The translations under genes and the position numbers were made by a program. A stretch of 63,995 bases of DNA, counting the filler, from Dugesia japonica (lineage: Eukaryota): assembly GCA_001938525.1 (NCBI GenBank). It is 6 parts of 6 records of this genome, joined end to end, with 100 filler letters (N's around TTAATTAATTAA, not from the genome) between each part and the next. Parts side by side here need not be neighbours in the genome. Positions count along the whole stretch, not along the records: positions 9,950 to 23,049 come from MQRL01262468.1; 5 more parts are not named here. One strand, written 5' to 3'. Below are positions 808-52,039 of this stretch, piece after piece; the stretch's first letter is position 1; every line of letters starts with the position of its first letter. Under the pieces are notes generated by a model. It made no database searches. It was not told where the DNA came from and saw nothing but the letters and a program-made list of their open reading frames with translations.

Positions 808-1217
808 CACATTTGATCAATATTTATTGAAAAGAAATTACCAACTGCTTTCCCTATAATCGTATCAATGCATCAAATAGTTTTGGTTCAAAATAGTCGT
901 GTAAGACCAATTTACTTGTTAGGAAATAACAGAGTTTGTCCAATCTTTGTAAAGTTTTAACTATTTTAATGCAATTNNNNNNNNNNNNNNNNNNNNNNNN
1001 NNNNNNNNNNNNNNNNNNNNNNNNNNNNNNNNNNNNNNNNNNNNNTTTTGAAATATACGAAAAATAAAAAAATAATTTTAATTTTACTATCGATATTCAT
1101 TGTCAAACAATGTTTCTAGAATTGTCTTACAAAAGATAAACTGAGTAGTATAGTTCACATTTGAAATATAAATTTACAAATAAAATAATCAATATTTAAA
1201 AGTATTAATAATCTTAC

Positions 1218-3406
1218 TTGTATGAACCTTCTGTATTAATACAATTTTGTTGACAAGATTTCTTATATACTTTACACTCATTTATGTCTTCATCACAACG
1301 AATTCCTTTAAAACCAGGTTTACAAATGCATTTTGAATTGGAACAATGACCGTGAACACAATCTAATTCTGCGCAAGTGTTCTTTTTAATAGGAATACAT
1401 GATCTACTATTACTAGTCAACTGATACCCAGATTGACAACCACAATGAAATGAACCAAATGTATTTATACAAAATTGTTGACATAACGTTTTATTGTCGC
1501 ACTCATTGATATCGTTTTCACATCTGGCACCAAAAAATCCAATTGGGCAAATGCAATTTCCATTAATGCATTTACCTCGGACACAAATTGGACATTGCAG
1601 TTTTTTACATGATTTGTTATCTGGCATTAATTGAAAANCATCAAAACATGAACATAAATATGAGCCATCAATATTTTTACATATTTGATCGCATTTATGA
1701 GTTTTATTATTACATTCATCGATATCAATTTCACAATTACTTCCGGTATATCCTTCATTGCAAATACATTGATCTTCTTGGCAAATACCATTGACACATT
1801 TACAGTCTTTTGTGCACGATATACCGTCTGATAATAATTTATATCCCGACCAACAAGAACAAACCATACGATCGTTTATATTTGTACAATTGTGTTGACA
1901 TGGTGAATAAAAATGACAAAAATTTACATTTTCACAATTGGCTCCAGTAAAACCCGGTTGACAAATACATTTATTATTTTCACACCATCCATTGTTTTGG
2001 CAGTTGTTTTTACATGGTTTCGACAAACAAGTTTTTCTGTCAGCTTGTAAAGAATATCCTAAATGACATTGACATTCATATTTTCCTGGTAAATTTACAC
2101 AAATTTGTTCACATTTGTGACTATATTTACATTCATCAATATCAATAGAACAATCCTCTCCATGCCAACCTGAAAAACAATAACAAATCCCATTTATACA
2201 ATCTCCATTTTCACTACAACTTTTCAAACAGTTTTTAACGCACTTTCCATTGGATAATAAATTAAATCCATTTAAACAACTGCATTTGTAAGAACCAATT
2301 GTATTGACACAAATTTGTTGACATTGTTGTAATTTACATTCATCAATATCTTCATTACAAAGTTTACCTTGCCATCCTGATTTGCATTCACATGTATTGC
2401 CATTAATATTCAATGTACCAATATTTGAACATTGATCTTTCTCACAGGATCTTCCATCGATTTTTAAAAAGTATCCAACAGTACATTTACACTGAAAATT
2501 ATTTTTATCTTGACTAATACATAGTTGTTCACAGGTTTTATTTCCCATTTGTCCGGGAGAGCATGAATTGATTTCCGATTGACAATCATCTCCTTCAAAA
2601 CCTTCAGTACATTGGCATTTGCCTAGTATGCAAATACCGCCATTTTTACAACTAGGTTTACAGGTTTGTACTTGAACACAATTTCTATTGGTTTCTTTTA
2701 ATCCACAAACACAATTAAAATCGTTAATTCTTTTATCGAAAATACAACCATGCACACAAAATATTAGTTTTTTTCGCTTACATAATTCAGCTTCTAATAT
2801 TGAACATTTTTCTCCATACCAACCCGTTTCACAGTAACATTTACCTTTAATACAAATTCCATTCTCTCCACAACTTGGAATACAATTGTCATCTGCCATT
2901 TCATTTACACATACAACTTCTGATCCAAATATTACAGATTTTTGTCCTACACCACACTTTGAATTATTTATTGGACAAAGTCTTGAATTGGAAAAACAAT
3001 TTGATTGACTACACGGGTCGTGATTACATCGTCTTGGATAACAAAACGGTGGTTTGCAAGGCGAATTTGGAAATTCATTAGGAAAATAATTAGGATATGA
3101 TTCTATCCGATTCTTATAAGTCCAATATTTTCCAATATCATCCCAAACATATTCATTAAATTGAGATTTTTTCTGTTTTCTAACTAATTTTCTTTTTCTA
3201 AATGACAAAATCGTAACTGGATTCTTTGTTGACAATTTCTCATTAATTGGAAATTGAATTAAATCGAATTTGAAAAATCGATTTCGATCCGATATAATTT
3301 TCTGATTTTTTCCAGCTTTGAAATAATTATTCAAATCATAAGTAGAAATTAAATAGACATTCAACAAAATTAAAGTGAAAATACAATTTTTAAAATAACT
3401 TTTCAT
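1218..3406 (-). CDS. Secreted multi-EGF protein with alternating tenascin-type and calcium-binding EGF modules; first large coding exon, 3' end incomplete
   Basis: 730-aa ORF with a hydrophobic N-terminus (MKSYFKNCIFTLILLNVYLIS). Repeated DIDEC/DINEC...C.N..GSY.C.C and C...G.C..G.C.C..G..G..C modules. The ORF stops mid-module at a GTAAG splice donor (1217). Confidence 0.9.
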
Positions 3407-4259
3407 TAAAATTATGATTAATTTAAATTTATTTTGTAGAAAAATAAAATTGTAAATTAAAACTTACATTAACATATGGAATGAATTGACTCTGTAAAAG
3501 CAAATGAAAATTGTGATTGATTTTATTTATTAATTCGTTGGGTTGATTACTGATTCAGATTTCACTGCCGATTGAAATTGTGGTGTGGTTTTTTTCTGGA
3601 ATTATTTCATGCTATCAATTTTAACATCACCACACATTGATCTGTTTTATTTTTGTTTATATTAAATCAATTAATCATAGGGCTCGTAATTTCTTTTTTT
3701 TTAATATAAACGATTATTGAACGTAGATTTCATTGAAACAACATTCCAATGCGTATTTTGTTTTTGAAAAAATTAATAATTTTATTAAATTTATATAATC
3801 AATTGTAATTGATAATTAAAAGAATTTAATTATAATTTTTATTTTGAGATACGTTTTAAAGTATTTTTGTTAAAATGAATTCATCACGTAATCATTCGGG
3901 TTTTTAATATATTAAACTTATTAAGTAGAAAGACCTTCCCTAGTGGCAAAATTTAGGGTGCTATGAAAACAGATGTTTTAAATGCTGATCCAGAATTTCA
4001 TTGTAAAAACGGTAGTGTAATTTGCATTTAAGTCACACGTAACAGTAAAAAATTGTTGGAGATTTAAAATTTAAAAGCGGTCTAGAACCTCCATTTTGAA
4101 TTTTTTGAACTCTAAACCTATAGACATTTAAAAGTTACCTATAATTGTCTTAAGAACTACTAAAGTAAAGTGTTCCGTTACCGAGAAATTTTAAATGACA
4201 AATAAGATATTTTGTGAATTACACACAAAAAAGCGTAAACTATTGGTTGTTTAATATAT

Positions 4260-4700
4260 TAATTTTTAAAAAAAATTTTAAATTATTATCATTGAAGTTG
4301 GCCATTTTTGAATAATTTTGATGGTCATTTTCTGAATATGTTTTATTAAATCATTCATATTTTTAAAACATTTTAATCTTTAATAAATTTTCAATAAAAT
4401 AAATGCAAATCTGTGTCATCAGTTTTGAAATTTAAAATTCAAAATTTTGAGAATAATACTCAAACAAACAAATAAACATACACCATTTTATTTTTAATAT
4501 ATTAATTGAAATTTTAAATTTCAAAATTTTGAGAATAACACGCAAACAAACAAATCAACATACACCATTTTGTTTTTAATATATTAATTGAAATTTTAAA
4601 AATTATAATAAAAAACTGCAATTTTTGAAATTTAAAAATTTGAGCAACACGCACAAACAAACATACCTCTGGGTTTTTGTAATTATATTAATAATTAAAT
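4260..4700 (+). repeat. Dispersed AT-rich repeat with tandem AAACAAACAAACATACACCA subunits, copy 1
   Basis: Three internal ~75-100 bp units at 4440-4700. Clear similarity to 42480-42970 and 45465-45880. Confidence 0.75.
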
Positions 4701-7408: not shown

Positions 7409-8430
7409 TTACAAGTAATGTCCATATGCTACACTGCAAAACCTTTTGTAATTGAAGGGATCTAATGCTTTCTTTTTTGTTTGAATGGTAAACATTTGAT
7501 GGTTCACTGTTCCAATTCTGCTTAGAGCTACCTGTTTTTCTTTACCCTTCTCATATGCATCTATATAGTCTTGATGGCTGACATTGATTTGCTTTCCTTT
7601 TCGACGTTGTTGTTTCATCTGTTTGAAAAGAATATGATTTTTGGCGAAGAAATATAAATTCTTTGAAATTGGACAGACTTATTTCCATCCTTGAACTTTT
7701 CAATGACTGGTGTTAACTGTGTTGAATAGAAGATCGTCTTTCTGAAAATTAGTACTACCTTAAAGCTTGTCTTGAATCATTGCTGGAAGGAGCTGCAGTC
7801 TCGGATCAACATTCTTGCATTCAAAAAAAGCTGTCTGTTTCAGCGACTATGTTAATTTCACAATTAAATCTTTTAATGTACGACTATAATTCCTCATATT
7901 GTAACTTATACATTCTGTACATATGTCCAGAACAGCTTGTNNNNNNNNNNNNNNNNNNNNNNNNNNNNNNNNNNNNNNNNNNNNNNNNNNNNNNNNNNNN
8001 NNNNNNNNNNNNNNNNNTTGAATCTTTGAATTGTGGTTTGCTGGCAAATGTTACAAGCTTCTTTTCATTGTTAAACAGCCTAGGATTTATACGCTTTTTA
8101 ACAGTTTTTCCATACAAACTGTTCTTTAATTTGAAAAAATCTTTCTCAAAGTTATTATTTGATTGAGATCGTTTTTCTGAATTTAAACCGATGTACGACT
8201 TGAAAACAAAGCAGTGATTAAACGCTTCAGCCTGATGAACTTTATCCACTTTTGCACCCAATTCCTAAAAAATAGAAGAAATCTATAATGTATTACATAA
8301 TTATTCTTCACTTCTTGTATTAATTGGAGCAAGTGGCAGTTCGTCTAACTTGTCATGCTCTTCTGAAGGAATTGACAAGTCAAACCCAAAAACAAGTCCA
8401 CATTTTTCTTTCTCTGTATTCATTTAACAT
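7409..8430 (-). pseudogene. Maverick/Polinton-type protein-primed DNA polymerase B, C-terminal remnant
   Basis: Motifs HDKLDELPLAP, YIGLNSEKRSQSNNNFEKDFFKLKNSLYGKT and KG...HQDY...NHQMFTIQTKKKALDPFNYKR...YGHY, with frameshifts and an N gap. Confidence 0.85.
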
Positions 8431-8556: not shown

Positions 8557-9090
8557 TCACACGAAAGTCTCTTGAATCTCTACAGTTTCATCCAATCATA
8601 TTAAAACCTGCTGTAACGCCGACTCGATTTTAGTTGTTAATCTCTCAGACATTTTATTGTACTCCTCCACTTCAAATTGCGTAGACCGTACTTTCTGCAT
8701 TAGTTTTTGTTGATACTTATTCAGCTCGGTAGACCGAATAAGCAAAGAGATCAGCTCTTTTTCTAGTTGCTCCTGTTGAATCGTTATGTCCGCTATTCGA
8801 TCATTAAATATCTGTTCTTGTTGGTATACTTTTTGTTGTAGATCGTCGAGTAGAATTATCTTCTGCTTGAGTGCCTCCTCATGCTTATGCATTAACTCTC
8901 TCATTGTTCAAAGCTCTTGTTCCTTTTGCCGCATGCAATCCTGTGTGATCCACCACGGATCTAAATCAGTACCGTATTCTGCAATTGAATCACATAGGCT
9001 CGGCATATCGTTTGCAAGGTTTGATTGGAAGACTGATCCATCTGGTTTCAATGATTCTTCAGCCACAGTTTTAGTAATTGCGTTAAACAT
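8557..9090 (-). pseudogene. Unknown coiled-coil gene ORF-A, copy 1 (in-frame stops)
   Basis: MFNAITKTVAEESLKPDG...MPSLCDSIAEYGTDLDPWWITQD...KELISLLIRSTE...KIESALQQVLI aligns by eye with 21344-21877 and 40368-40889. Confidence 0.8.
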
Positions 9091-17789: not shown

Positions 17790-18560
17790 CACCTATCCCC
17801 CGATTTACATGGCACTTTATTTACACGGTTTTCAATATGGTGTTTAAAAAGAAAAAATTTCGGCATTCATTTTTTAACGCGGTCTCCATACAGAATTTCA
17901 TTTTTTTGTTTTTCTATTCGGAATTTTTTCAAATTTCATATTTACTGAGATTAAGTACTTAACGCCCAGTTCCTGCTGTAAAAAAATGGCCAGATATAGT
18001 TGAAGGTCAGAATTCTAAATTACTTTTGAAGCATGAATATTCTCAGATAACAGAGATGGCGCATAAAATGGGAGGAGAAGGTTTCGAGGATTTTTCTAAA
18101 ACATATTTTAGAACTAATAGCGGCCAAAGAACTAGATAAGGATAATTTAGTTGACATTGTTAATGAAACAAATGATTGTGACAGTGATCATGATTAAAAG
18201 GAGTCTAAACCAGTTGCGTTCACAGCAAAATTCATCCGTGAAAGACTTGAATTAGGACGAAGGTTGGGTAATCATTTTCTACAGCATTACCCGATTGAGA
18301 TCTCCTATTTCAGCAAAATATTAATAAACACTTTACTCAATTTTAGGTCTATAAAGATCTGACCAAAAACAAACACAATTGTTAATTACGAAATTTTCGT
18401 ACAAGGTTCGACGATCTGAATTTGTTTCTAATTGAACTTGAATCTATTTCTAACATTGAACTTGAATCGCATCAAGTACTATCGAGTGATGCAAGTGACA
18501 TCATACCAATCAGGAAGAAAAGATTAATAGTCTACGAAAGTGATATCAGTAAATAAATTT
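17790..18560 (+). mobile_element. Internally deleted pogo/Tigger (TIGD1-like) element
   Basis: TA|cacctatcccccgatttac terminus. C-terminal motifs KK.WPDIV and MAHKMGGEGFEDF. Confidence 0.7.
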
Positions 18561-19120
18561 TCGGTTAAATTTTTTAATTTTTATTTCTTGTAAAATGAAT
18601 TACATAAATATACCTTTATGTTTGGCTGAACAGCCTCGAGTAAAAAGTGAAAAACTGAGAACGAAACAAATAATCGAGTAATAATAAATTAAATAAATGA
18701 AAGGAAAGAAAATAATTAGAAATAAAAGAAATATTAATTGATGAAATAAAAAGGAAATTATTATTAAATAAAACGAAAATGAATGATGATTAAAATCAAA
18801 GAGCAAAAAAATAGCGAGCAAAATCCAGTATAAAATGGTAAAAAGAAAATAAATATTAAGTACTTAAGAAAATTAGGAATTGATTATTATTAAAAGAATT
18901 AAATATAATTAAAGAAGAGTTAATAATTGAAATTAAACAAAATGCTCAAAGAAGAAAATGAATAAGAATTAATAATTAAAACATATATAGTGCTCAAAAA
19001 ATAATAATTAATTAATCAAAGAAATGCCCAAATTGAATATCAGAAAAAGAATTGAACAACTAAAGATGCTCATGAAATAAAAAGATTAAATAAATAAGAA
19101 AATAATATGGAGTTAATCGA

Positions 19121-19228
19121 ATTTATTGTGTTTATATATTGAATAATTGAAAAGCGAGATCATTCACTCTTCGTTCGAATATACGGCAGCAATTAAGCGC
19201 TAATGCTCAGTGAAAAGTGAATGACATC
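19121..19228 (+). repeat. 108-bp copy of 20361-20468 inserted between a ~45-bp duplication
   Basis: Near-identical to 20361-20468. Flanks 19078-19122 and 19229-19271 are duplicated. Confidence 0.9.
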
Positions 19229-19899
19229 TAAAAAAAGATTAAATAAGAAAATAATATGGAGTTAATCGAATAAATTATAAAGAAAGAAATAATAAAAGTG
19301 GAAAACGATAAATAAAGTTAAAGCCGAAAGTGAAAATCAAATCATAAAAATGACACATTATTTATAATTTATATAAATGTATTAAAAGTAGAAATATAAT
19401 AAAACAATGATTATAATAATGTAGAATTTAAGCAAATAATTATTGAAAAAGGGTTTACGAAATATAATAAGAAAGGGAAAATAGGAAATAAATGTTTAAC
19501 ATTATAATTTTAAAAAACCAAATTATTAGCAGAATCTGACTAAGAAAATTATATTATTACTATAATTTTAATAAAAGTATTAAAATGTAAATTATTATTA
19601 TTTTGAGATAAATATTATTAAAGTTATTATTATTGCATACATATTATTAATTATACAGAAATAAGTAGAATCAAGAAATAAAAGTTATATGCAAAGAAAG
19701 TGTATGAAAAATTAGATTATATTTACTTATTTATATTAAATTATTTATAAAGATACTTGTATATATCCCTATCTATAGAATGTTGCAAAGTTTCTAAAAT
19801 TATTATTTTCGACGATAAATATAATTTATTTTCAAATTGATTCTTTCCTGTTGGGTGACCTGAAGTTTTCAAGTAGAAACACAGCTGTATTATCTACAA

Positions 19900-20260
19900 A
19901 TATACAAGCACCGCACAATATTCACAAAATGTGAAATCTGCGCATCAGGTGAACTTCGGGTGATGCCGAAAGAGATAAAAATTACTATATGAGCAGGTGA
20001 ACACCGTGCACAAATAACATCGAAGCAAATGTGATGCCGAGTAAGCATCGGTAAATTCACAGAAAGTACAAAGAAAACTACCAAAATAAATTCATATCCA
20101 AATTTAGACTTTTCTGTAGAATCTGCGGGTAAGCACCACACGATTCACTGCACTTACAGAAAAGTTGATGTGGCCTCCCAATGTAGCTGTCAAATTTTGA
20201 CGATACAGGAAGGTATAAAAGACAGCCGAAAAATCATAAATTTATTCTCTTGAAAATCTT
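19900..20260 (+). promoter_or_regulatory. Conserved non-coding block with TATA box, upstream of ORF-A copy 2
   Basis: Colinear nucleotide similarity to 41060-41333(-), including tgatgccgagt, acgattca and caaattt(t)gacgatacag...ggTATAAAAgac (TATA at 20214). Confidence 0.6.
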
Positions 20261-21343
20261 TAAAATGTTTTGTAGCTCTTATTAGTCGATTGAACCGAAC
20301 TTTTAAGCAGCATTTATTATTAAACTATCATTCAAAAGGAAAAGGAAAGAAGTAAAATTTATTTATTGTGTTTATATATTGAATAATCTAAATGCGAGAT
20401 CATCCACTCTTCATTCGAGTATACGGCAGCAATTAAGCGCTAATGCTCAGTGAAAAGTGAATGACATCATGAAATAAAAACGCGACCACAAATTGTGTGA
20501 AAAGTCGATAATAAAATTATTGCGATTATGCGATGAAATAAATATGATCTAAAGTGGAACGGAGTTAAATATTGGTTGAAACAGAAATGATATGATGAAA
20601 TAAATCTGATATAAATATTAGATGTTGAGACGAAAAGAGTAGAAAAGTTGCTGATTATAACATTATTGTAAATGAAGGAGATTGGCGAAGGAGAAAAGCA
20701 ATTGAGACTGAATTACAAAAGGTAATGAGTACGAGAAGTGGTTGGTTGAATCTTCTCCACTGAAATTCATGGTTGTATTGTTGAGATGAGATATAGTTGT
20801 GTCATTTCGATAAAAATAACAATTCGATTTAATTCACTTCTTGATTCTAACTGATTAAACTATGAATTTTGTTATTATAATCTTTTATATTTTGTTTGTC
20901 CATAATTATTACATTAGTACTATTCCATATATGATTAATTTATAGTTGATAATTAATAAAATTATTTCAATTATAATTGTTATATTTAATAATATCTATT
21001 AACTGTTTATTCGATAGAGAAAAGTGCCATTGTGATATGAAATGGCGGGAGGATCATTCATGACAGCGAACAAATCTAGAATATCTTGAAATGACAATAA
21101 AAGGAAATTAACGATCACGCTCTGTTCTATCAAACTGTTAAATTGAAAATAAAGTCATGCGCTCTCGATTCGGTGGCGTGTAATGAATGCTCAGGTATCT
21201 GCTTAAAAATGAACTAACCTTATAGTAAGAATGATTTAATCAATGTAAAATTTTTATAAAGATCATTATGCTCGAATTAATTATCGATTTTGAAAACCTT
21301 ATTTTACTAATTTGATGATCATGATTAAAATCATGTTATGCAG

Positions 21344-21877
21344 ATGTCACGCCCGATCAAGCTAAGAAAAGTCAAAAAGAGTATGAATGACGACGGTTGG
21401 AAATTACGGAGAAATGCACCAAATGTCATGCCGAATCTATGGGACTCACTAGAGCTAAAAAGTATTCATACTGAGCCCTGGTGGGTTATTCAAGATAAGT
21501 GTAAATAAAAGGATGATTATATACGAACATTGGAGAAAAGGATGTCTCGACAAGAACGGCAACATGCCGAGAAATTGGAAAGACTTGATGACTTGCAGAC
21601 ACGCATCAATAATCAGGAACAACGATACAATCAACAGCTGACAACTCTTGTAGCAACGCAAGAGAAACGCGAAAAGGAATTAATAAGGTTGCTCATCCGG
21701 ACTGTGGAAGTCTCAAGGCAACAACAGCATTTAATAAAGACAATGAGAGTCGCTTAACTCGAAGCCCAGGAATACACGAAATTGACTGAAAAGTTATCCG
21801 CAAAGATCGAGACAGCGCTCGAACAGATGCTCATTCCTCTGGATGATGATATTATTACTATCGAAATGACAGTGTGA
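21344..21877 (+). pseudogene. Unknown coiled-coil gene ORF-A, copy 2 (two in-frame stops)
   Basis: MSRPIKLRKVKKSMNDDG...MPNLWDSL...EPWWVIQD...EKELIRLLIRTVE...KIETALEQMLIPLDDD. Preceded by a possible GTAAG (21226)...CAG intron. Confidence 0.8.
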
Positions 21878-22069
21878 TTGTGTAAATTCGACAATATAAT
21901 ATTTATCTTAGCAGTTTTGTTCCTAATAAAATTAAGTTGCTAAAATTAAGATGCTAAAATTAAAAAAAAAGTTTTGAAATAAATTTTGAATTCCTTATCA
22001 TTGCGATAATTAGATTAAGTATTCAAATGTTCTAGCAATCGATTAATTATCTAATTTTGATTCAGTGTC

Positions 22070-22400
22070 TAGTGAAAGGAAAATCAAGGCCAAAATCTTC
22101 CTGGGGGATTTATGTAAGTGGTGCTCAATGCAAAAGAAATTCCAAAATGAGATAATGGAGCTCCAGCGTAATAAAACACTGCTTCGAGAGAAGAACACCA
22201 AATTGAGAGAGCGAGATCTAGCCCTTTCGTAGACATGTCAAATGATGGCTGAGATCAACAAGTGCTATGCAGATCGAGAGTGTGCTCATCGCAACGATAC
22301 GTACTCTAACTCAGGCATATAAAATGAACAATAAAGCGGAGAAGAAAGATATAAAGGAGGTAATCGACCTGGACGGATGACGAATTATTTATTCGAATGA
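22070..22400 (+). pseudogene. Unknown gene ORF-B, first of two copies
   Basis: SMQKKFQNEIMELQRNKTLLREKNTKLRERDLALS*TCQMMAEINKCYAD is homologous to 39880-40130(-). Confidence 0.75.
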
Positions 22401-23149
22401 AGTTTTATCATGAAATGTCTTCCGAGTTTTATATCCATGATAATTAAGGGAAAGTGATGAGATTAGAAAGTACAAGAGTAACTTTAGACGATTAAATCAA
22501 AATTTAAATCACAAGATGGGATAACTCATAGTCCCCCATGGACTCGGAGTAGATAATCCAACACGTGTAGTGTTGCTAAATTTTTGCCGGCTTCGGGGTA
22601 TCTGCCCTTAGAAGATATCAAGATGAATTTAACAACGAGGACAAAAGAAGAATCAAGAGATAGGAAGGGAACAATATTAAAACAACAAAACCTCGAAGCC
22701 CAATATTTATATTTTTGTCATTTTATAAATAGACCGTTATTTTTGTGTTTTTAAAGATATATTTAGTTTTATTTAACGTTGAAATAAATGTTTGAATTAT
22801 AGATCAATAGATATTTAACTATATTTTATTAGAAAATTTGTAAATCAATTTTTATTGTATGTACAATCAAATTTGTAATTTATTTTGAAAGAATCCTTTT
22901 TCTAAACAGTAATTATATTTATTTACGATATATTTTATTCATAAAGTTCTTTTCATTTATAAATGAATAATATAATAAAACTAATTTTTAAATAACGTTT
23001 ACAAAAGAAGAACATATCATTGACGAAGTGCATATTCTTCACAATCGAANNNNNNNNNNNNNNNNNNNNNNNNNNNNNNNNNNNNNNNNNNNNTTAATTA
23101 ATTAANNNNNNNNNNNNNNNNNNNNNNNNNNNNNNNNNNNNNNNNNNNN

Positions 23150-23863
23150 AAACATTGAGGAATTATCTGATGTTTCATATATTGTATTTTCAAGTCTGTG
23201 TAATTGGCATTTGAGACTATAAAAAGAAGCTTCAATCATTGCATTATTGGAGTAGTCAGAGGCTCCTGAATTTGTAGGGATATAGCTCAGTTCTTTATTT
23301 AGTAATTCAATTGGTTTGTCAGTAAATTTATATGCTGTTAAATTTTGGAACGGAAAAACTGTTGTATTTTCACTATCATCTGAGTGTAGAATTGTTTTCA
23401 TTTTAATTTTTTCTTCTGTTTTAGTTTTTTCAGAAAGTAGAGTTCTCAATTTCTTTTGTTTGTTGAGATCATTAATGTTTTTAAATTTTCTATATAATTC
23501 CTCATCTTCTTCATTTAGACGAAATGGTAGTGGTTTATTTCATTTCAGATAATTGAGTTCGCTATAGAGTCTTTTACGAAGAATTGTAATCCATTGAAAG
23601 CTCTGACGTTTAGATAGTTCTTCGGATTTATGACATTGAAAGGTATTCTTGAGTTTGTTTTTAGTACTCAAACCAAATGGTATTAATTCTCTTCTTTTAG
23701 ATTCACTTAAAAATTTGAAATGATTTTGAATTTTGTAAATTTTTATTGCATTGAATAAATCAAAACGTCCACGGTTGATGGCGCCAGCCATAAGAATTTT
23801 ATAATTACAATTATTGTGAGAATAATTGTTGGACTTAACCATTGATCGCATTTGAGATTTCAT
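23150..23863 (-). mobile_element. Penelope-like retroelement, 5' ORF portion (truncated at contig end)
   Basis: PLE N-terminal motifs HFKFLSESKRRELIPFGL and NLTAYKFTDKPIELLNKELSYIPT. The ORF start matches the pLTR-like copy at 54340-54407. Confidence 0.7.
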
Positions 23864-23884
23864 TGTTGGTTATTGTTTATTAGG

Positions 23885-29821: not shown

Positions 29822-32800
29822 ATGTATCCCGGTGGTAATAATAATAATTTTTTCCATAATAGCCTTAATCAACCGCCAAGTATTTTTTATTCTCTTTTCA
29901 AACAATATAAAATTTTTAAGTTGGCTTTAATGATTCGCAACATATTAGATATCCAATATATTCAGGCCAGAATTTAACAGGTAATTTAATAATTATGTAA
30001 TTTAAATTAATTTTATTAAGGACTTCCAATTGGATTCAATGTGGGTCAACCGGAATGTAACTACGATAATTTTTTGACTTAATATAACTTTAGAACTAGT
30101 CGCTCAACAACATTCTGGATATCAGCCACCTTTAAATTCTAGTGGTTACAATCAAATTTCTAATATGCCTTCATATCAGTCATTGTCAAATTTCGATCAT
30201 ATTGGTCAACCAACTCCTATATATAATCAAGAATATTATATAGAACGACCCCAGTATCAAAATAATTATTCTGTTACTCAGACTGGTGGTTATAGTATAC
30301 CATTTAGTGATGTGCATTCGAATCAACAATCGCCATCCAATTATGGAAGAGTATACAGCCAAGTATTTTATTGTTTTTATTTTAATTCATAATTGTTGAA
30401 TTAATAGCAAGAATGTTATCCTTCCGAAAATCTTTCTAATATATCACTAACAAATCAGTCTAAAGAAGTGCGTATTATTATTGAATTTAAAATTAAAGTT
30501 ATATATAACTATTTATAAAAATTCACATAGGAACTTAGTCAATATTACCTAATTTAAGATAATGCAACTAATGACGCTACCTTGTTATTAGTGCAGTTGT
30601 AGGGCATCACATAGCAAATCAGTAAACATATTCTTTGTGTTGTACATAACATCCNNNNNNNNNNNNNNNNNNNNNNNNNNNNNNNNNNNNNNNNNNNNNA
30701 TGTATTTTTAAATCATTATGACTTCAATTTCACTAATATTGATCAAGAATTAATACCAATTTCATATATTGATGATTTAGAATTACTTATAACTTGAAAC
30801 TGTGTCATTGACACAGTTGCCTGAAAGATCTGCTAATGAACTGACTATTAAAATTAGATAGATTAACAAAATTGAAATCAGTGTATTGACGAATTTCCAG
30901 CGATTATTATTATTAGGGTGGATAAGTATTCAAGTTGATTTCTATCACTAACAAAATTTGTCAGACACTACTCAACAGGCAAATCAAAAAGTCCTTTTTA
31001 CATCGCATTGTTACTTGTGATGAAAAATGTATTTCTCATGAAAATTCGAAACTAATAAAATCATGGGTGAAGCCTGGTCAAGCNNNNNNNNNNNNNNNNN
31101 NNNNNNNNNNNNNNNNNNNNNNNNNNNNNNNNNNNNNNNNGTTATCCATTTTTTTGGGATCGAAGAGGGATTATTTATTTTGAGCTTCTGAACAAACGTG
31201 AAACAGTTGATGGTCGGCGTTATTAACAACAATTAATAAAATTGAGGCAAATATTACGCGAAAAACGTCCAGACTATTCTAATAGACTTCAAACGGTGTT
31301 GCTACAGCATGATAATACTCGACCACACACTTCAATTTTAGTGGGGAATACGATAGCAGAATCTAGATGGGAAGTTTTACCTCACCAGACATCGCACCAA
31401 GTGATTATCTTCTTTTTCGCTCAATGTAATATGGCCTTTGTGAACAGCATTTGAACAATCATTATGATATCCAGAAATGGCTTGACTATTAGGTCAATTC
31501 CAAGGAATTAAATTTTTTTTATCGTGGAATTCGTTTGTTGCCAAAAAATGGGGAAATGTTGTTAGCAATAATCAATGCTACTTTAAATGTAAAAGTTATG
31601 TAAAAATAAATCTATTTTGAGTTTTTATTTACAATTATTATTAAAAAACAGCGAGAATTAATGCAATTACCTAATAAAAATAATTAAAAGATAAAATAAT
31701 TAAATAATGATCAGTTTTTGAAATAATTATTGGGTTTAATCATTATACTATAAGATTTACTAAATTAATTAGAATTCTAATGTTATTTACGTATTTAATG
31801 CTAATACGAATGTACTCCTAGGTGAACGTTTGGTGACGCGCTTTCTACGAGGTTATTTATAAGTTATGTTTTCATGCATTTAACGTAATGTGGATTTTTA
31901 ATACAGATCTGGCGTCGACATCATGAATTAAGATATCTTAAAACCTTGTTTATCAATTTAAGTGTAATAGATATAATGCTGTCATATCTATACAAGGGTT
32001 TAAGAGTAAAATCGTATTGGTAGTGGTAGTAAAATTGACAAGCATAAAATAAAAATAGATGTAATGACATTTTTGAATTTTAAAATTTATTGGGNGAGAA
32101 TGTTGCATGAGGCATTAATGATTAAATTTCATTATCCAACCATTAATATGCAGATAACTCTTTTGACTAAATTAATAGAAAAGTTTTAATTAAAATTTGT
32201 ATTTCTATACTATAAATATTTTCATCAGATTTTTAAAAAAATTTTAAATAATTTTGATTTGTGTATATTTTTAAATATTTCGAAAATTTCAATATAGGTA
32301 TTAATTATATAAATTCTCATTATTTAGATTTTTCAACAGAACATGTCATCTTAAGATACAATATTTAATCCATTTACAAAGTTCTTATATTTTAAATGTT
32401 ATCAGTATTAAATGTTGTTTTGATTGAATTAACTAGAACTTTTAGTATATAAGAACTTCATAAATAGATTAAATATCATGTTTGAAGATGACAGATGTTC
32501 TGTTGGAAAATGTTAGAAAATATATTTTGAAATGGTGTTTAAGAATTTTCATTGAAAAAATTGCTATTCTTTGATTATATAAAATTTAAAAATAATTTCA
32601 CAATATAAAATTATTTAAAAATACTACAAATTACAATTGCTCAATTTAAAATTTAAGATTAATTTTCCAAAACATCTTAGGGCAACAATAACACAGAATA
32701 CACATAGGTGTGTGTTATGTAACATCAATTGTTGATTATTAATTTTCTACTTTGACATATTTAGTGAAATGAAATAGATATGCATAGAAATGCATAGATT

Positions 32801-38311: not shown

Positions 38312-39879
38312 CTAAAATTAATTTAAAATAAATTAAGTTCAATTTTGTGTTATTAACAAATAATAAGTTGAAAATTTTATAAAATATATTCATACAATCA
38401 TACCAACTATTTATTTTCAAGGACATTATTTTGATTCAGTGAAACAAATTACATTAATTATTGCTAAGGATGGAACTTTGTTTGATAATAAATTATAAAA
38501 TAAGTTCCTTATTGAAGAATATTAAGAATGTCAATTTTTTAGAAATAACTTAATAACTAAATTAAGGTATTATAATTTTAATTTTTTATTTGAACTGGAT
38601 TTTTTCCAAACATTTCTATATTTCGAAATTTTTTGTAATTCATTAACTGGAATATCAATTTATTCGCAATTTCTATTATAAAATTAATAATGAAATTAGA
38701 ATCCATATGAAATCATTTATATTACTTTTGGATAAGTATAACTGTAAATTTTGATCATTTCGTTAAAAAATTAAAGCATAGATATTGCATTAAAATTTAA
38801 AAATAACCTCGTTTTAATAATATAAATAATATAATTCAATAAACTTCGATTTACTCGAATCCCCTTACTCGGATGTTCTTTTAAACGGGACGAAATTTCC
38901 TGCACGGATATAGAATCTTGTGGTTATATAAAATATTTAATTAATACGGATACAGTTATTCTGGAAATCCTGTGAAATGAATTCCGAAGCATTATAAAAA
39001 TAAAACTGTTAATCTGAAATCTTATTTTAATTTAGTAAGTAAACAAGTAAATTTTATATTGTGTTGCAATACTACTGTCATAAATGGGTTCCAAATCTCC
39101 TAAAGAGCGTATTACTGTTCTGATGTCTATCATTATGAAGGGCACTGAAAAGTCGCCATTATGGGTTATAGATAAGTGGTTAGAAACCTTTTGCGAACGA
39201 TGTGTCGACATTTGCTTCCAAACTATATAAGTAATTTAAACCAGTTGATTCAATTTACCTGTTGCACAATATATAATATATAGAAATTTTATGTAATAAT
39301 AATAATTAAACCATATTGAAAGTTTATATTCATATTCAAATTTTTGCTTCATCACCTTTGCTTAGTGTGATACCTAGTAACCACAGAAATTGTTGATGCT
39401 TTCTCCTACATCACGATTCACCATTCCTGGATTCAGCGTAGCTAGTGTGTTTGGAGCCCGGTAACAAGATTCATATTTTATTTTATTTATATTTCTGGTC
39501 ATAGGTTACGAAATCTGTATTCTATTGATTATGCTTAGCAATATTAAATTCACACAATAATATTGATAGTGCATAACAAAAGTTGACTGAAAGAGAGTGT
39601 CGAACCTTAAATCTTAATAGATATCATATTAAAACGATACAAAAAATACACAATACAAATATTTCAAACCCTATTTTGGCGTCCCACCCTAGCTACGCCT
39701 CTGGCTGTATCCCGTCTTATGTTTTCTTTTCCAATTTTATTCGGCTCTATAATTATTGTGTATTGTCTGGTTACTGGAGATAAAATTCGAACAACTTTTA
39801 CATAACAAATTTTATTTTATAGTTAATCACATCACACATCCAGATCAATTATGTCGCTGTTTTTTTTTAATTCCTCCTT

Positions 39880-40130
39880 TTCAATCTTTGAGGACTGATT
39901 AAAGGCCCGTACTGTAGCTATCATGACTCATTCCAAGTCTACATATGCCTTATTGATATCTGTAATCATTCTGCAGGTCTGAGACAAGGCGAGATCACGT
40001 TCTTTTGATTTTGCGTTTTTCTCTCGTAATGCATTGTTCTTTCTCTGCAACTAGCTTATTTCGTTCTGCATCCGCTTTTGCATTGAACTCTATTTCTTCT
40101 TCAAGTCCGTTACGGGGACATCACTTGTTC
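39880..40130 (-). pseudogene. Unknown gene ORF-B, second copy
   Basis: SMQKRMQNEIS*LQRKNNALREKNAKSKERDLALSQTCRMITDINKAYVDLE is homologous to 22070-22400. Confidence 0.75.
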
Positions 40131-40367
40131 GTTTCTGTGGATTTACCACTAATAGAATATAAATTGAATCTATAGCATATCCTGTTTTAATAATAATTTA
40201 TAATTCATTAATATAGTGATATTGTTTGATTATTGTGAAATTTTTATCAAAGAATAATTTCATTCATTGTTTAATTTGTCGTTAAGTTATTTCTATTGCT
40301 ACGGAGTCTTTAAGCGAGTCAAGAGAAATATAATCAAAATGAAGTTATATTGATGTAGTACTACAAA

Positions 40368-40889
40368 TCACATGATTGTTTCCTTAGTATCACTCGCTTT
40401 ATTCAGTGGCACGATGCTCTGCTGCAGAACTCTTTCTACTTTTGATGTTAAACGCTCGGAAAATTAAGAGTGTTCTTCGGCTTCGGTGTGTGCCAGTCAC
40501 AGAGTTTGGATCAAATGTTGTTGATGTTTGTGTACTTCCGTTTTTCTGATCGAGAGCGCAATCAATTTCTTCTAACGCTGTTCTTTCCAGATCGTGGTCT
40601 TCATAATCTGCTGTTCATGTAGGTCCATGCGATTCTGAAGCTCATTTATCCGATCTAATTGTGTGGCTTGCCTTTCTTGCTGCCGTTGCACCTCATTCGT
40701 TAAGGTCTGGATTTCTGCATCTTTATTTCCCAGCCGCGCTTGCGTGACCTACAAATGTTCCATATCTGTTGCATAGGATCCGATCGAATCCCACAACGTT
40801 GGAATATTGTTGCAGGAGTCTGTACCAAAGGATCATCCGTTTATCTCCAGCGACTGCTAGGCTTATTCATTAGAAATTCTCCTTGACAT
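40368..40889 (-). pseudogene. Unknown coiled-coil gene ORF-A, copy 3
   Basis: MSRRIS...NNIPTLWDSIGSYATDMEHL*VTQ...KLIALSIRKTEVHKHQQHLIQTL...LTSKVERVLQQSIVPL. Confidence 0.8.
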
Positions 40890-41059
40890 CAAGCGCAAAA
40901 TAATAATGTTAGAATTTTCGCTTATGAACAATTATATATTATCAAATTAAATAAATAATAAACGAAATCTAACAATACAAACAGGATCAAACACTCGTCA
41001 AATTCGACGGAGTTGGAGTTTTTGCTCTGACTTTTTTTAAAAATACGTTAACAAGAGCG

Positions 41060-41333
41060 TAAAATGAAAATTTTTTATCAGAAATTCTGAAATTTGGTTC
41101 GTCTTTTATACCCAGCTGTATCGTCAAATTTGTCAAGTACAGTTCAGGCGACTTCAAATTTCTGTAAAACTCAATGAATCGTACGGTACTCAGCGGTACA
41201 TTCTATACACATCTCCAAATTTGGACATGTTAATTTTCACTACTCATTTGATTTGGCGGTGCTCACTCGGCATCATATATTTTATTAAATTCTCAATTCT
41301 CTTTGTGCAATGCTCAACCGACACAAATTTGCA
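41060..41333 (-). promoter_or_regulatory. Conserved TATA-containing block upstream of ORF-A copy 3
   Basis: ggTATAAAAgac on the minus strand at 41101-41112. Colinear with 19900-20260. Confidence 0.6.
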
Positions 41334-42479
41334 NNNNNNNNNNNNNNNNNNNNNNNNNNNNNNNNNNNNNNNNNNNNNNNNNNNNNNNNNNNNNNNNNNN
41401 NNNNNNNNNNNNNNNNNNATAATATTTTTGGCGAAAAATATTAATTTTTGGAAAGTTTGTTTTCCACAGATAAATAGCAATATATACAAGAACTAATATA
41501 AATAAATTAATACCATTAATAAATTCTTAGATAAAACTATCTCTTCTTTCTTTATATATAATCTTTATCTTCATATTCTATTTCTTTCGCTAAATTTAAT
41601 AATATTTATTTGATAATAATATTTATAAAAATAATAAATTTACAAGTTTAACTACCGTTATTATACTAATATTCTTCTTTTAGATTATAATTTACTGGAT
41701 TTATACTATTTTATTAAATATGGTAATAATAATGATTATATACTAATATTTATTGTAATAATTTTCCATTTTTACACTTATTATAATAATGATTTCTATT
41801 TATCTTACATCCCTTAATTCTATCAAGAAATTTTAATCTGCTTTTGTTTTAATTCTACTTTTAGTAATTATTATTTTACTATGTTATAAATCATTTTATT
41901 ATACCATAGATAAAATTATAAATAATAGTATATGTTCTGTTTAATTTTTCTTCCATTTAATATTTCTTTCGTTGTTAGTCTTTAATTAATTTATTTAATT
42001 ACTCAATATTATTCCTTTTATTCTCTTTTTATCGTTTTCTGAATTATTAAATTTGTATTTATATTTCATATATCCAATGCAACCCTTTTCTTTAATTCGG
42101 TGCGCATTAATTTATCAGAGCCTTGTTAGTTTAATTTGATTATCGTTTTCTTTGATTTCCGTCGATTAATTATTGTTGATCCTTTTATTTACTGCGCTTG
42201 TTTTATCGTTTGTTTTTTTATTATTTGATCTTATTTTAATTAATTATTATTTCGTTGAGCATTATTGTTTCGTTGAATACTATTCTATGATCTTAATTTC
42301 ACAATCTATTCTCCTTACATTTATTTCGTTATTATTTTATTTCCATCATTTATTGATTTATTTTAACCGCTCTTTTATTATCCTTGATATTTTTTCATTC
42401 ACATACTTATTGTTTCGTTTAATTCTCGACTTTTTCTTATTTATAATTTCTTTTGTTTTAATGATCAGTTGTTAAATTT

Positions 42480-42970
42480 GTGCTGTTTAAACATTTTCAA
42501 AATTTATAAATGTTTTTTTTTAATTTTTAAATTATATGCTTTCATAAATTTTTCTTGTTCCTTTTTAAAATAACTTTCATTTAAAGATTTAAAATTTATA
42601 AATATTTTTAAAATTATCATCTTTGCAGTTAATTATTTTCTGAATAACTTTCATAAAATTTTTCAATTTTTTAAACTTTAATAAATTTTCAAACAAACAA
42701 AGATTCAGCACTGTATGCTATAATAATTAAAATTTTTAAATTTTAAAAATAACAATTTTTGAAAATTTCTGAATAATATTGAACATTAAGCATAAAAAAA
42801 CAAACCAACTTACACCACTGGGTTTTGAATAAATGAATTGAAAATTTTAAAAGGTATAATAAAAAAATTATTATTTTAAAATTTTGTAGAAATGTTATGA
42901 ATAATATTGAGCATCACGCACAAACATACAAACAAAAAAACATACATCACTGGGCTACTCATATAATTAT
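42480..42970 (+). repeat. Dispersed AAACAAAC-type repeat, copy 2
   Basis: Similar to 4260-4700 and 45465-45880. Confidence 0.75.
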
Positions 42971-43559
42971 TATTTCTAATTGAGAATTCAGTTTAAAATT
43001 TAGTTTTTAATTTTATTAATATATAACATGAGATTCACAATTAGTACATTCATATATCTACCGTAGTTCACATTTCCTAATCGTTAAAAAATATTTCTAT
43101 GTTTATTTTATTACTTCTGAAACATGATATCTATTTAGTTATTTAGTAGTTATTCAAAAATAGTATAATTTTTAAAAAAAATTACTAAATACAAAAAATT
43201 TGAATCTTTTCTGATTGAATATTCGTAAACTTTCTATGAGGAAAGAGGTTTTTTATTGAGCTACTTAAATAAATATTTGTATTTGACTATATCATGCTTT
43301 GTACAAAAATAAGATAAATAATCAATATTTTTAAACATAATTTTTACATTGATCAGAGAATTAAAAGTTCTTCATTCAGCTGAAATAGGAACTTAAATTG
43401 ATATCTAAAAGTTTTAAATATTACCAAAAATCAGTTACTTCAGGTAAACGGAATCAAACATAATGCATGATTTCCATCAATTCCACTGCTTCAAATATTG
43501 TTCCTCGAAATTCTCTTCTTGATCTATACGTTTCTTATTTTTACATCATATTTCCTCGT

Positions 43560-44460
43560 TATTGAGGTCACTGATAATCTTATTCCACATTACTGACATA
43601 TTTCATCACGCCATTTCTATTATTGTTTCTATCTTGTAACTAGTCATTGTTCTTATTGTTATTGTTTTCAATACATTTTCTCAGTGATTTTATCGTCTTT
43701 TATTATATCTTATTATATCTTGTGTGCCCATAACTATGGCATATCCAACACTCTAGTTCTGTTCTTTTTGCAACTTTCTCAATATTTTGTCTCCTGTCGC
43801 CGATAAGTTCTCCACATGTTACACTCACGAAACTCTTTACTACGTTAATATGTGCTCTTCTTTCTATTTTTTAAATTAGTGATAGTGTATCTTTTCTATC
43901 TTCTACTTTTTTCAATTTTTTTATGATTATCTCTTTTTCTGCTATTCTTTTTCCTGTGCAAATCACTAGTATTTTTATTAAGAGTTTTTCTTTCGTCAGT
44001 TCTTCATTTGCTAAAGATTTATCGACCAAATCTGCTACTTTTTAAAAGAACATTTTATGGTCTTCACCACCACGTTGATAGTTTACAAGATTCTGGAGAT
44101 CTTTTATTACATCTCTCTTGCTCTAAAACAATTATCGCAATCGCCCTTGATATCCGTCAGCTTTCTTCAATGTTTTCACATATGCCTCCATTAATTCAAG
44201 TATACATGTTATTAGGCGTTTTTGATCTTTCTTAAAAACGATGTTCTTCACCTCGAAGTTTATTTCACACCGTTTAATAAACTTTTCTAGATCATCGCCT
44301 CTGCAAAATATTGTTGGCAACAATNTCTCTGTGATTGCTTCGGTGTTTACCGCTGCCACCATGTTATATGAGTTTGAAATACCCATCGGATAATTAATGT
44401 CAAAACTCGTTTCCATAAAATATTTATTCACAAAACAAAACTACATTCATCACAATTTGT
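43560..44460 (-). mobile_element. Ty3/gypsy 5' remnant: LTR end, PBS and gag with zinc knuckle
   Basis: taaca-TGGTGGCAGCGG PBS at ~44350-44366. RGDDLEKFIKRCEINF. Degenerate knuckle ECWICQ*LWAH near 43730. Confidence 0.7.
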
Positions 44461-45362: not shown

Positions 45363-45464
45363 NNNNNNNNNNNNNNNNNNNNNNNNNNNNNNNNNNNNNN
45401 NNNNNNTTAATTAATTAANNNNNNNNNNNNNNNNNNNNNNNNNNNNNNNNNNNNNNNNNNNNAA

Positions 45465-45880
45465 TCTGTACTAAATTTTCAATAAAATAAATATAAATCT
45501 GTATTATTAGTTTTCATATTTTAAAGTTAACATTTTGAGAATTATTTTCAAAATTTATAGATGTTTTATTCTCATTTTTTAAATTATCTGCTTTCATAAA
45601 TTATTCTTGTTGTTTTTAAAAATAACTTTCATTGAAAGACTTAAAATTTTCATTGAAATTTTTTAAATTATTATCATTGAAGTTAATCATTTTTAAATAC
45701 TGATTCTGGTCATTTATTAAATAACTTTCATTAAACCTTTCAATTTTAAAAACTTTTATAAATTTTCAATAAAACAAACAAGCAAACATACACCACGGGG
45801 TTTTTAATACATTCATTGAAATTTTTAAACCTATAATAAAAATTCATAATTTTTAAAACTTTATGAATAATATTAAGCAC
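45465..45880 (+). repeat. Dispersed AAACAAAC-type repeat, copy 3
   Basis: Similar to 4260-4700 and 42480-42970. Confidence 0.75.
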
Positions 45881-51000: not shown

Positions 51001-52030
51001 TATGCTAGGGATTACCTTTTCACAACTTTGAAATTAATCCATTTAGTCGTATTGCCGATCCTTACTTCCACCTCAAATATTCCTTTGGTACTTAATGAAC
51101 TGTCGTTAGTGCACCGTAGTCTGTCCTTGGTTGTTAATTACGGGAAATCCTTGAACTTGTTAAACACATCCATACCCATCACATTAATTCTTGCTCCGGT
51201 ATCCAGTAGGCATTCAAACTCTATGTTTTGGATTTTTATCGCAATGCTCGGTCTACCCTGCATTATATCATATCTAACCACACCTTCCCCCCATTCTTCT
51301 AGTGTTTCGATAGTTGGTTCCACTGATGTTCCTCCCTTGATTACTGATATTTCTTTCTTTTAAAAATTATAAACTCGTTCTTTGAAATCATCCCCTATAT
51401 TATTTATATGACTAGTTTTACTATAACTATCGATATTTTGGGGATCACCCATTAGATTTTGAGTTCTACAGCTCCTACCATCTCCCTTGTTGGTGGAGCT
51501 TTTCCGTTTGGGTTTCTCATTGATTCAAATACGTTTGCGTCATATCTGTTGTTACCATATCTAACGTCTTCAAATATGTCGTCCTCATAATTCTTGTTCC
51601 TTGTCTCATCATCTTCCACTGCATTGATGTTAACATATCTAACTGGATATGGGAACCCTTTTTACCTCATTTCTCTTATATTCCTAAGGATATTTGTTCC
51701 ATTTCTTGTACTCCATCTTTGTGAAACAGTCTTCGGTTTTATGACCGTTTTTGTTGCATTTTCCGCTCTTTATATTATTGCACTGTCTTCTGATATGTCC
51801 TACACTTCCACATACATATCATGTAGAAGGATTTCTGTCTGGGCACTCCCGACTTATGTGACCCAATTTGTGACAGTTCCAACATTCTACTTTCCCTGTT
51901 CTGAACTCTCTACTGGTATTTGGCCATTTGAAAGTTGATTCCTGCATCCTTGGTGTCGTTCTTTTCGGTTCATTATATAATGCCTCCTTGTAGCTACGCA
52001 TCACGGTTATTCCTTCTATCTTTTTGGCAA
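48016..52030 (-). mobile_element. Ty3/gypsy LTR retrotransposon, decayed: gag knuckle-PR-RT-RH-IN-PPT-3'LTR
   Basis: CWNCHKLGHISREC; LLDTGA; MPFG...YLDD; TDAS...TDHKA; H..AH..C..C and IDIAGP...SPYHH...VER; GPF motif. PPT aaagaaagggga, then a putative LTR TG (48331)...CA (48016). Confidence 0.92.
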
Positions 52031-52039
52031 TTCTTGAAA

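Follow-up and report, generated by a model that had tools for sequence, protein, structure and literature searches.

Two coiled-coil genes in an inserted unit

The window, a 63,995-nucleotide stretch of Dugesia japonica DNA (GC ~27%) made of six N-linked pieces, holds three copies of a gene, ORF-A, on three different pieces, and two copies of a second gene, ORF-B (Table 1). As the sequence-only reading had claimed, an ordered cassette occurs twice. Copy 2 repeats the order of copy 1 (A-rich tract, TA-rich block, an N gap, promoter block, ORF-A, ORF-B).

The limits of copy 1 were defined by at least nine matches spanning the joint, which linked 18590-18623 to 22703-22756 (5 of 15 and 4 of 12 rows among the matches listed); all came from one DNA run (X1), and the shorter side of one of them was 98 letters long. 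Since contigs of this run join both flanks directly, copy 1 is a 4,087-bp insertion into another repeat. Both termini, which the earlier reading had proposed to look for, and a target duplication were found, and the unit runs to 22705 rather than to 22420 as first proposed. A 5-bp duplication, TTTAT, fits the reads as well as the 4-bp TTTA. The ends, TGTTTGGCT and AGCCCAATA, match in inverted orientation at 7 of 9 positions, with a TG start and a TA, not CA, end; each departs by one base from the TGTNR rule. The 4-bp direct repeat, TG start and 7/9 inverted match that coincide at the read-defined limits were found together in 1 of 380,894 random position pairs. A long inverted repeat was absent from the terminal 300 bp (the best inverted alignment scored 18, the shuffle mean being 18), as was a terminal direct repeat (score 27; the shuffles made for the inverted test reached up to 28). 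No polymerase, integrase or capsid gene was seen within copy 1, ORF-A and ORF-B having been read with Pfam and the remainder by eye in translation. Both ends are known for copy 1 only.

Table 1. Features of the inserted unit and of its relatives in the window.
Feature	Position	Strand	Remarks
Copy 1, whole inserted unit	18619..22705	+	4,087 bp; likely solo LTR; limits from joining matches and end sequences
Target-site duplication, left copy, TTTA	18615..18618	+	joint 18614->22706; 5 letters fit both sides
Target-site duplication, right copy, TTTA	22706..22709	+	host repeat resumes here
A-rich, C-poor tract (~50% A)	18619..19560	+	likeness to copy 2 mostly compositional
TA-rich block	19560..19830	+	homologous to 41419-41690(-), ~65% identity
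Short AGCACC-type motif, 4 copies upstream of TATA box	19906..20160	+	3 in copy 2
TATA box GGTATAAAAG in conserved block	20212..20221	+	
133-bp duplicate of 19096-19228	20336..20468	+	86%; core of 108 bp at 94%
ORF-A, copy 1	21344..21877	+	177 codons, 2 internal stops
ORF-B, copy 1	22128..22381	+	one stop, one frameshift
Copy 2	39703..42493	-	TGTTT start at 42493
ORF-A, copy 2	40368..40889	-	173 codons, 7 internal stops
ORF-B, copy 2	39832..40083	-	83 codons, 2 internal stops
ORF-A, copy 3	8557..9090	-	177 codons, 2 internal stops

When the DNA of copies 1 and 2 was compared, four blocks exceeded all of 200 shuffles (19560-19830, 20030-20300, 22116-22390 and 22390-22530). The alignment of 18619-19350 was no better than shuffles (65/200 reached its score), and that of the spacer between the two ORFs was at shuffle level (174/200). 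The A-rich tract that had been described as shared is therefore alike in composition only over 18619-19350, and it is the neighbouring TA-rich block that is homologous. The proposed conserved promoter block held up: the TATA block with its repeated upstream motifs is 69% conserved, and the TATA box recurs just once within the window, at 41112(-) in copy 2. The AGCACC-type array may provide enhancer sites. The leader of copy 1, which holds the 133-bp duplicate, is ~900 bp longer than that of copy 2. The TGTTT start of copy 2 coincides with the end of a different repeat; likeness to copy 1 ceases near 39703, with no right end detected. Thirteen AATAAA hexamers lie downstream of the TATA block in copy 1, the last 226 nt of which show no folding beyond shuffle level (z -1.1). 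Rfam and tRNA searches gave no match. A decayed gene in the A-rich tract was also considered but is unsupported, codon periodicity being absent (342/500 and 31/500 shuffles reached the observed values).

Past selection on ORF-A and decay of the copies

Each ORF-A copy could be read in a single frame. Their translations are 34-37% identical in pairs over 163-177 aa (tblastn E 1e-25 to 1e-33), with local scores of 264-316, whereas 1000 heptad-preserving shuffles reached no more than 95. The likeness extends beyond the coiled coil, as the first 62 residues, which mostly precede it, scored 60-98 versus shuffle maxima of 39-45. Among the motifs listed earlier as kept in ORF-A, PWW is present in only two of the three copies. 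The two ORF-B copies are 63% identical over their first 52 codons, copy 2 is predicted to be all-helical, and no relatedness to ORF-A was detectable. All five ORF copies (three of ORF-A, two of ORF-B) are broken, and the internal stops noted previously in every ORF-A copy were confirmed.

Synonymous sites of ORF-A are saturated (pS 0.82-0.91 versus pN 0.38-0.40), and identity at the first, second and third codon positions is 0.49-0.53, 0.66-0.71 and 0.30-0.34, respectively. The resulting position bias (0.32-0.41) was never reached in 2000 neutral simulations (maximum 0.27). These comparisons of coding sequence show that ORF-A was formerly under purifying selection, in agreement with the sequence-only reading.

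An acceptor-like AG lies immediately 5' of the ATG of ORF-A copy 1, and another lies at 22065, ahead of ORF-B copy 1. Direct splicing from ORF-A to ORF-B, with the GTGATT that closes ORF-A as donor, was rejected by eye since the phases do not fit. Introns, as read by eye, measure ~45-55 bp. No RNA run was listed as containing this stretch. In two RNA runs, of which 6% (X21) and 25% (X22) were read, the bins covering both genes had a mean depth no higher than 0.81, and neither a start nor an end of RNA was seen.

The ORF-A family and its abundance

Intact relatives of ORF-A, a search for which had been advised, were found in public assemblies: four unnamed proteins of 164-176 aa that have a common N-terminal motif ahead of a predicted coiled coil. 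A profile HMM scan with ORF-A gave five matches, of which three were kept; a repeat protein (P0001) and a coiled-coil envelope protein (P0005) were discarded, their matches being confined to the coil. One relative (P0004) fell in the protein atlas into unnamed clusters only, with low recognition.

The earlier statement that no domain is recognised was borne out. Neither ORF nor the intact relatives gave anything near the Pfam cut-off except generic coiled-coil rows, PHROGs and NCBIfam likewise contained no family match, no PDB sequence fell below E 0.07, and no BFVD or PDB fold matched at E<=0.001. A word-index protein search with the three ORF-A copies retained none of 2014 candidates, and with the intact family, only three query clusters were recovered among 1349. 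Among 7996 longer proteins none contained ORF-A, a result that argues weakly against a fused form. Relatives of either ORF were absent from IMG/VR viral contigs, no locus with them was detected in metagenome contigs, and a phage tblastn search gave no match. The sole prokaryotic locus matched (L001) was set aside as a chance 16-residue match within an efflux-adaptor-like ORF. On its sequence, ORF-A appears to represent a protein family with no described name or class.

Summed contig depth, which is not a true copy number, was 594-1035 for the promoter block and 689 for the right end, versus ~10 for unique contigs, and suggests tens of relatives.

Origin of the unit

We favour the interpretation that copy 1 is a solo LTR of a large Gypsy-type retroelement, with two coiled-coil accessory genes read from its own TATA promoter; this is probably correct, the assignment resting on the anatomy of the unit and the gag-pol parent being postulated. 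The fit comes from the 4-bp duplication, the TG...TA ends, their 7/9 inverted match and the lack of long terminal repeats. Since two terminal direct repeats are missing, a TRIM or LARD non-autonomous retroelement was discarded. The arrangement of the genes speaks against a solo LTR, as reading the plus strand places both of them in an R/U5 of 2.5 kb, far longer than usual, and reading the opposite strand would make both antisense in U3. ORF-A copy 3, around which neither the promoter block nor ORF-B could be detected, stands ~140 bp before a polymerase-like remnant.

Alternatively, copy 1 could be a whole non-autonomous element with very short TG...CA ends, moved as DNA by an integrase-like transposase of the Ginger type acting in trans and carrying the genes as cargo. 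Ginger1 and Ginger2 likewise have TG-type termini and duplicate 4 bp of target, and TGTNR ends are common to Ginger and Gypsy LTRs (PMC2836005). With its promoter, two ORFs and tail, copy 1 also has the look of a transcription unit complete in itself, no full-length parent was seen, and selection on ORF-A implies that this protein mattered to the unit that moved. However, Ginger elements encode a Gypsy-like DDE transposase and need inverted repeats of 40-270 bp (PMC2836005). Copy 1 has nothing longer than the 7/9 match, and no transposase was recognised in it, by Pfam in the two ORFs or by eye in the rest. Furthermore, a long A-rich tract and a motif array ahead of a TATA box are how a U3 region looks, and copy 1 has both. 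We consider this explanation unlikely, and a new gene-carrying, integrase-moved element with no retroelement parent at all quite unlikely.

The sequence-only reading had proposed the cargo or regulatory module of an undescribed large mobile element or of an endogenous DNA virus. A mobile element with selected genes of an undescribed family was indeed found; a DNA virus is unsupported for copy 1 because long inverted repeats, polymerase and integrase are missing from it. An origin of both ORFs as accessory genes of a Maverick/Polinton-type endogenous DNA virus or some other large DNA element, with the copies as its deletion derivatives, is in our judgement very unlikely. A decayed reading at 7409-8420(-), whose motifs we take to be those of a family-B DNA polymerase, lies downstream of ORF-A copy 3 with the same orientation, and this remnant is the only hint of a DNA virus. 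Its identity was unsupported by Pfam, PHROGs, NCBIfam, PDB, atlas, viral-contig and phage tblastn searches, and a nested insertion accounts for such a neighbour. Polintons are active in planarians, according to the available portion of one report (PMC8532177). Their inverted repeats are long, however, and copy 1, complete and bounded by its target duplications, has neither such a repeat nor a capsid gene; neither viral contigs nor viral folds include a relative of its genes.

It is still more doubtful that copy 1 arose from a retroelement by internal deletion or recombination, in which part of an LTR, the leader and upstream accessory ORFs from the internal region were joined to a 3' LTR end. 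Accessory ORFs do lie upstream of gag in a Burro-like element (PMC6431247) and in Retrosat2 (PMC3485330), as far as the accessible text of both sources goes, and the difference in leader length between copies 1 and 2 would be in keeping with such events. On the other hand, a terminal direct repeat is lacking, and no TGG resembling a primer binding site was seen by eye in the 220 bp from TATA box to ORF-A in copy 2. Independent deletions would hardly have left the very diverged copies 1 and 2 with an order that agrees through the tail that follows ORF-B. Finally, pseudogenes of a host coiled-coil family, to which the acceptor-like sites and the intact relatives in other datasets could point, are almost certainly not the explanation, as the copy 1 genes lie within a duplication-flanked insertion in another repeat, which largely refutes this for copy 1, all ORF copies are broken, and no Pfam, NCBIfam or PDB family matched.

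Under the solo-LTR interpretation, a full-length parent would have been reverse-transcribed and integrated by its own integrase into another repeat, and gag-pol would then have been removed by LTR-LTR recombination. RNA may start near 20240 and be spliced to the acceptor ahead of each ATG, giving protein A or protein B. Protein A may be rod-shaped, its coil serving for self-association and its conserved N-terminal motif for binding a partner. The three copies would represent three long-separated active lineages that decayed after insertion.

Burro-type giant Gypsy-like elements of planarians are possibly the likeliest parent. In the consulted part of their description, they exceed 30 kb, with an internal region of up to 25 kb and accessory ORFs, and Ogre LTRs measure 1.9-6.5 kb (PMC6431247); the rice Retrosat2 LTR exceeds 3.2 kb and has 429 solo copies, as stated in the excerpt available (PMC3485330). 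Solo LTRs of the Ogre/Retrosat2 type are likewise multi-kilobase, start with TG, have short imperfect inverted ends, a short target duplication and an internal promoter, and lack enzyme genes. Their extra ORFs, in the portions of those sources at hand, belong to the internal region, whereas copy 1 holds two selected ORFs inside the putative LTR, downstream of the TATA box. Burro1/GYPSM1 and Burro2-4, compared by partial description only, occur in thousands of copies in a >70% AT genome and share the very large size class and accessory ORFs, including an Smc-like coiled-coil motif, but their MATH, BIR, BCL2, ankyrin and env motifs are absent from copy 1. The retroviral genes that overlap LTRs, MMTV sag and HIV nef, lie in U3, upstream of the LTR TATA box, whereas the copy 1 genes lie 3' of it. 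Plant accessory ORFs (Grande gene23, PvRetro13 ORF2) are also small, selected and of unknown family, one with an SMC-like coil and some with their own promoter (PMC7264820), but are located between pol and the 3' LTR. The literature searched did not describe ORFs within the LTR of a planarian element; Grohme 2018, Lee 2026, supplements and Repbase fell outside its coverage and may describe them.

A solo LTR is a known kind of remnant, and its interior is likely an unusual place for two genes. If the unit is the known LTR of an annotated Burro/Gypsy family, the novelty shrinks to the two genes and their protein family. More tentatively, there may exist a giant retroelement family with two selected genes inside the LTR, downstream of the promoter, so that each LTR, solo ones included, forms a transcription unit of two genes that is complete in itself. 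The ORF-A family may mark such elements beyond this species. If our reading holds, solo LTRs would be leftover gene cassettes and not promoter relics alone, and many diverged lineages would have kept the same two accessory proteins, widening the view of LTR cargo. ORF-A would then be a marker with which to classify a common unannotated repeat. The same reading would also supply two candidates for accessory proteins in a group where an effect of giant elements on host stem cells is reported, as the accessible part of a study of Burro1 describes (PMC13465017).

Limits and copies of the unit

Sequencing runs X1 (DNA), X7, X21 and X22 (the last two RNA) were aligned to 17800-23049 at 80% likeness. 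Contigs of X1 jumped from 18590-18623 to 22703-22756 in at least nine rows (5 of 15 and 4 of 12 among the rows listed in two tables). These contigs, which span the empty site, were diverged in letters from the window and are therefore other copies of the repeat into which the unit inserted. The sequence-only reading had placed an element at 18600..22420; the element is real, but its limits are not those, since the joints place the right end at 22703-22756. The unit begins with TGTTTGGCT and ends with AGCCCAATA, each end abutting TTTA. The TTTA duplication is 4 bp long, and a 7/9 inverted match lies in register with the unit ends, a combination found in 1 of 380,894 random position pairs; a 5-bp duplication is also compatible, but the inverted match is then out of register. 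Each end is one base off TGTNR, and neither a long inverted repeat nor a direct terminal repeat was found there.

Copy 2 starts with TGTTT where another repeat family stops, and its likeness to copy 1 ends near 39703; its right end was not found, and both ends were located in copy 1 only. In both copies a TA-rich block is followed by a promoter-like block containing a TATA box and repeated motifs, then by ORF-A, by ORF-B and by a short tail, and every shared DNA block tested scored above 200 of 200 shuffles. The same ordered cassette had been proposed for both copies, which holds from the TA-rich block onward but not for the first 730 bp of the A-rich tract, whose score was reached by 65 of 200 shuffles. 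That of the A-B spacer was reached by 174 of 200, and the A-rich tract had no codon periodicity. Copy 3 consists of ORF-A alone.

Summed depth in X1 was about 10 over unique contigs; it rose to 594-1035 over the promoter block and to 689 near the right end, and lay at 24-61 over most of the genes. Although summed depth is not a copy number, this suggests that the non-coding blocks have tens of close relatives and that the gene variants are many and diverged; the peaks over AT-rich bins may be low-complexity noise. Depth over the genes was at most 0.81 in X21 (6% read) and X22 (25% read), with no start or end sites in these runs.

The window, made of six short pieces with N-linkers between them, has a GC content of about 27%; the S. 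mediterranea genome is >70% AT (PMC11410931). It contains genes of animal type whose introns are very short (p24 and an RpS12-like gene). Relics of transposons are numerous and include RT/RNase H at 49.6-53 kb as well as mariner HTH and hAT domains. Near-identical DNA was present in six runs, from three studies of one organism, with 678-933 million contig letters. A triclad planarian would be compatible with these traits.

Features of the unit, its copies and their surroundings
Feature	Position	Remark
Unit (copy 1)	18619-22705(+)	4,087 bp
ORF-A, ORF-B of copy 1	21344-21877, 22128-22381	
Copy 2	39703-42493(-)	ORF-A 40368-40889, ORF-B 39832-40083
Copy 3	8557-9090(-)	
Polymerase-like remnant	7409-8420(-)	decayed
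Host repeat	17850-18618, 22706-22900	multi-copy; some RNA reads
Part of host repeat	17990-18540	resembles C-terminus of a Tigger/pogo transposase; no Pfam match
11-bp inverted pair	22588-22600, 22690-22700	stem closing the unit's last 120 bp
End-block junction	near 22578	different upstream sequence in RNA reads and relatives' contigs
AT-rich repeat family (three copies)	4276-4666, 42493-43100, 45463-45900	internal repeats of ~80-130 bp; one copy adjoins left end of copy 2
GC-rich stretch	39670-39703(-)	starts where copy 2 likeness ends; a further inserted transposon may end here; no matching terminus found within its piece
GTGATT(T/G)	21874, 40371, 8560; near 60256	terminates ORF-A; apparent RpS12-like donor
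EGF-like frame	1214-3463(-)	long, open, tandem repeats, intron-free in this stretch; host extracellular protein
L7Ae/S12-family ribosomal gene	60000-60478(-)	appears unusually diverged; perhaps a paralogue
Two decayed Gypsy-type pol regions	48314-53655(-)	side by side, 35-55% alike; RT and RNase H matches
Gag-like remnant	43600-44440(-)	zinc knuckle, read by eye
Palindromic elements	32328-32511, 54158-54344	each ~190 bp; second matches 23796-23864, whose adjoining sequence we take to be Penelope-like

The ORF-A and ORF-B proteins

The three ORF-A copies are related, as the sequence-only reading had held, with 34-37% identity and alignments far above both plain and heptad-preserving shuffles. 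The N-terminal part was significant on its own, and the loss of signal named beforehand as a ground for rejection did not occur. ORF-B is 63% identical over 52 codons in its two copies.

Past purifying selection on the ORF-A protein, also proposed earlier, was borne out. Synonymous sites are saturated (pS 0.82-0.91 vs pN 0.38-0.40), bootstrap intervals for the difference exclude zero, and identity is 66-71% at second and 30-34% at third codon positions, a gap reached in 0 of 2000 neutral simulations. All copies carry internal stops (2, 7 and 2), as had been noted. The copies thus descend from separate protein-keeping lineages, each broken after insertion. The same short motif terminates every ORF-A and serves as an apparent donor in the RpS12-like intron, and the ORF-A stop may overlap a splice donor.

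A three-copy ORF-A profile gave five hits at E<=0.001 among 1.84 billion representatives, three of them 164-171-aa proteins matching the ORF-A N-terminus. None of these relatives has a name; their contigs measure 1.4-2.0 kb, and one of the proteins has a near-twin of 176 aa (P0006). They have in common the motif W-S...GTD..PWW followed by a heptad-patterned stretch (hhalign 96%, E 2e-9), and in the reverse search with the intact-protein profile the window copies were the top three hits. With 1000 shuffles for each pre-coil comparison, the score was reached by none in eight of nine and by one in the other. AlphaFold predicted a single 90-residue helix with a low-confidence N-terminus for the intact relative P0002 (pLDDT 74, pTM 0.37) and an all-helical ORF-B. 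Neither model had a fold match in BFVD or PDB, and no family library searched (Pfam, PHROGs, NCBIfam) names either family, in agreement with the earlier statement that no domain was recognisable. Locus scans for the ORF-A family in viral, metagenome and prokaryotic contigs were empty or gave chance matches.

Nature of the element

The unit stands alone, is several kb long and contains no enzyme gene; its ends are of TG type and flanked by a short duplication, and an A-rich tract at its 5' side precedes a motif array and a TATA box. This is the anatomy of a solo LTR. TGTNR termini are common to Gypsy LTRs and Ginger ends, and Ginger TIRs measure 40-270 bp (PMC2836005), whereas the unit has no long TIR, though its TG-type ends are alike; LTRs >3 kb are described as uncommon (PMC3485330), and planarian Burro elements as >30 kb, with an internal region of up to 25 kb and accessory ORFs (PMC6431247). 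Given this anatomy, the contrast with Ginger, and the size and accessory ORFs of Burro, we lean towards the view that the unit is what a large Gypsy-type element left behind as a solo LTR. Several points count against this view: no parent retroelement was seen, both ends were located in one copy alone, neither end follows TGTNR exactly, and the RNA runs gave almost no depth over the genes.

A non-autonomous element that is complete in itself, and is mobilised by an integrase acting in trans, would have the same anatomy; we consider this second reading unlikely. A DNA-virus origin of ORF-A and ORF-B is more doubtful still: a remnant that lies 140 bp beyond the end of ORF-A copy 3, on its downstream side, has motifs that we take to be those of a family-B DNA polymerase of Maverick type, in its C-terminal half, but no library confirmed this identity. 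Of the mobile element or DNA virus originally suggested, the former stands, as a real element with its own ends and duplication, and the latter, drawing on that unconfirmed remnant, is improbable.

What is unusual for the putative solo LTR is that ORF-A and ORF-B both lie downstream of the TATA box, within the unit. With the LTR on the + strand, both genes would lie within an unusually long R/U5; in the opposite direction, they would sit antisense in U3 under a promoter of their own, like the extra ORFs of some plant elements, although those adjoin the LTR and are outside it (PMC7264820). An acceptor-like AG stands immediately before ORF-A in copy 1 and in copy 3 but is absent there in copy 2; another lies ~60 bp before ORF-B in copies 1 and 2. 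Judging from these motifs, alternative splicing of one leader would yield either protein A or protein B.

The literature searched does not describe genes within a planarian LTR; this repeat may already be listed in Grohme 2018, Lee 2026, their supplements or Repbase. Occurring three times in 64 kb, it is probably already in some repeat library under some name. The unit is real and is most likely an element of a known kind, carrying an unnamed accessory protein family.
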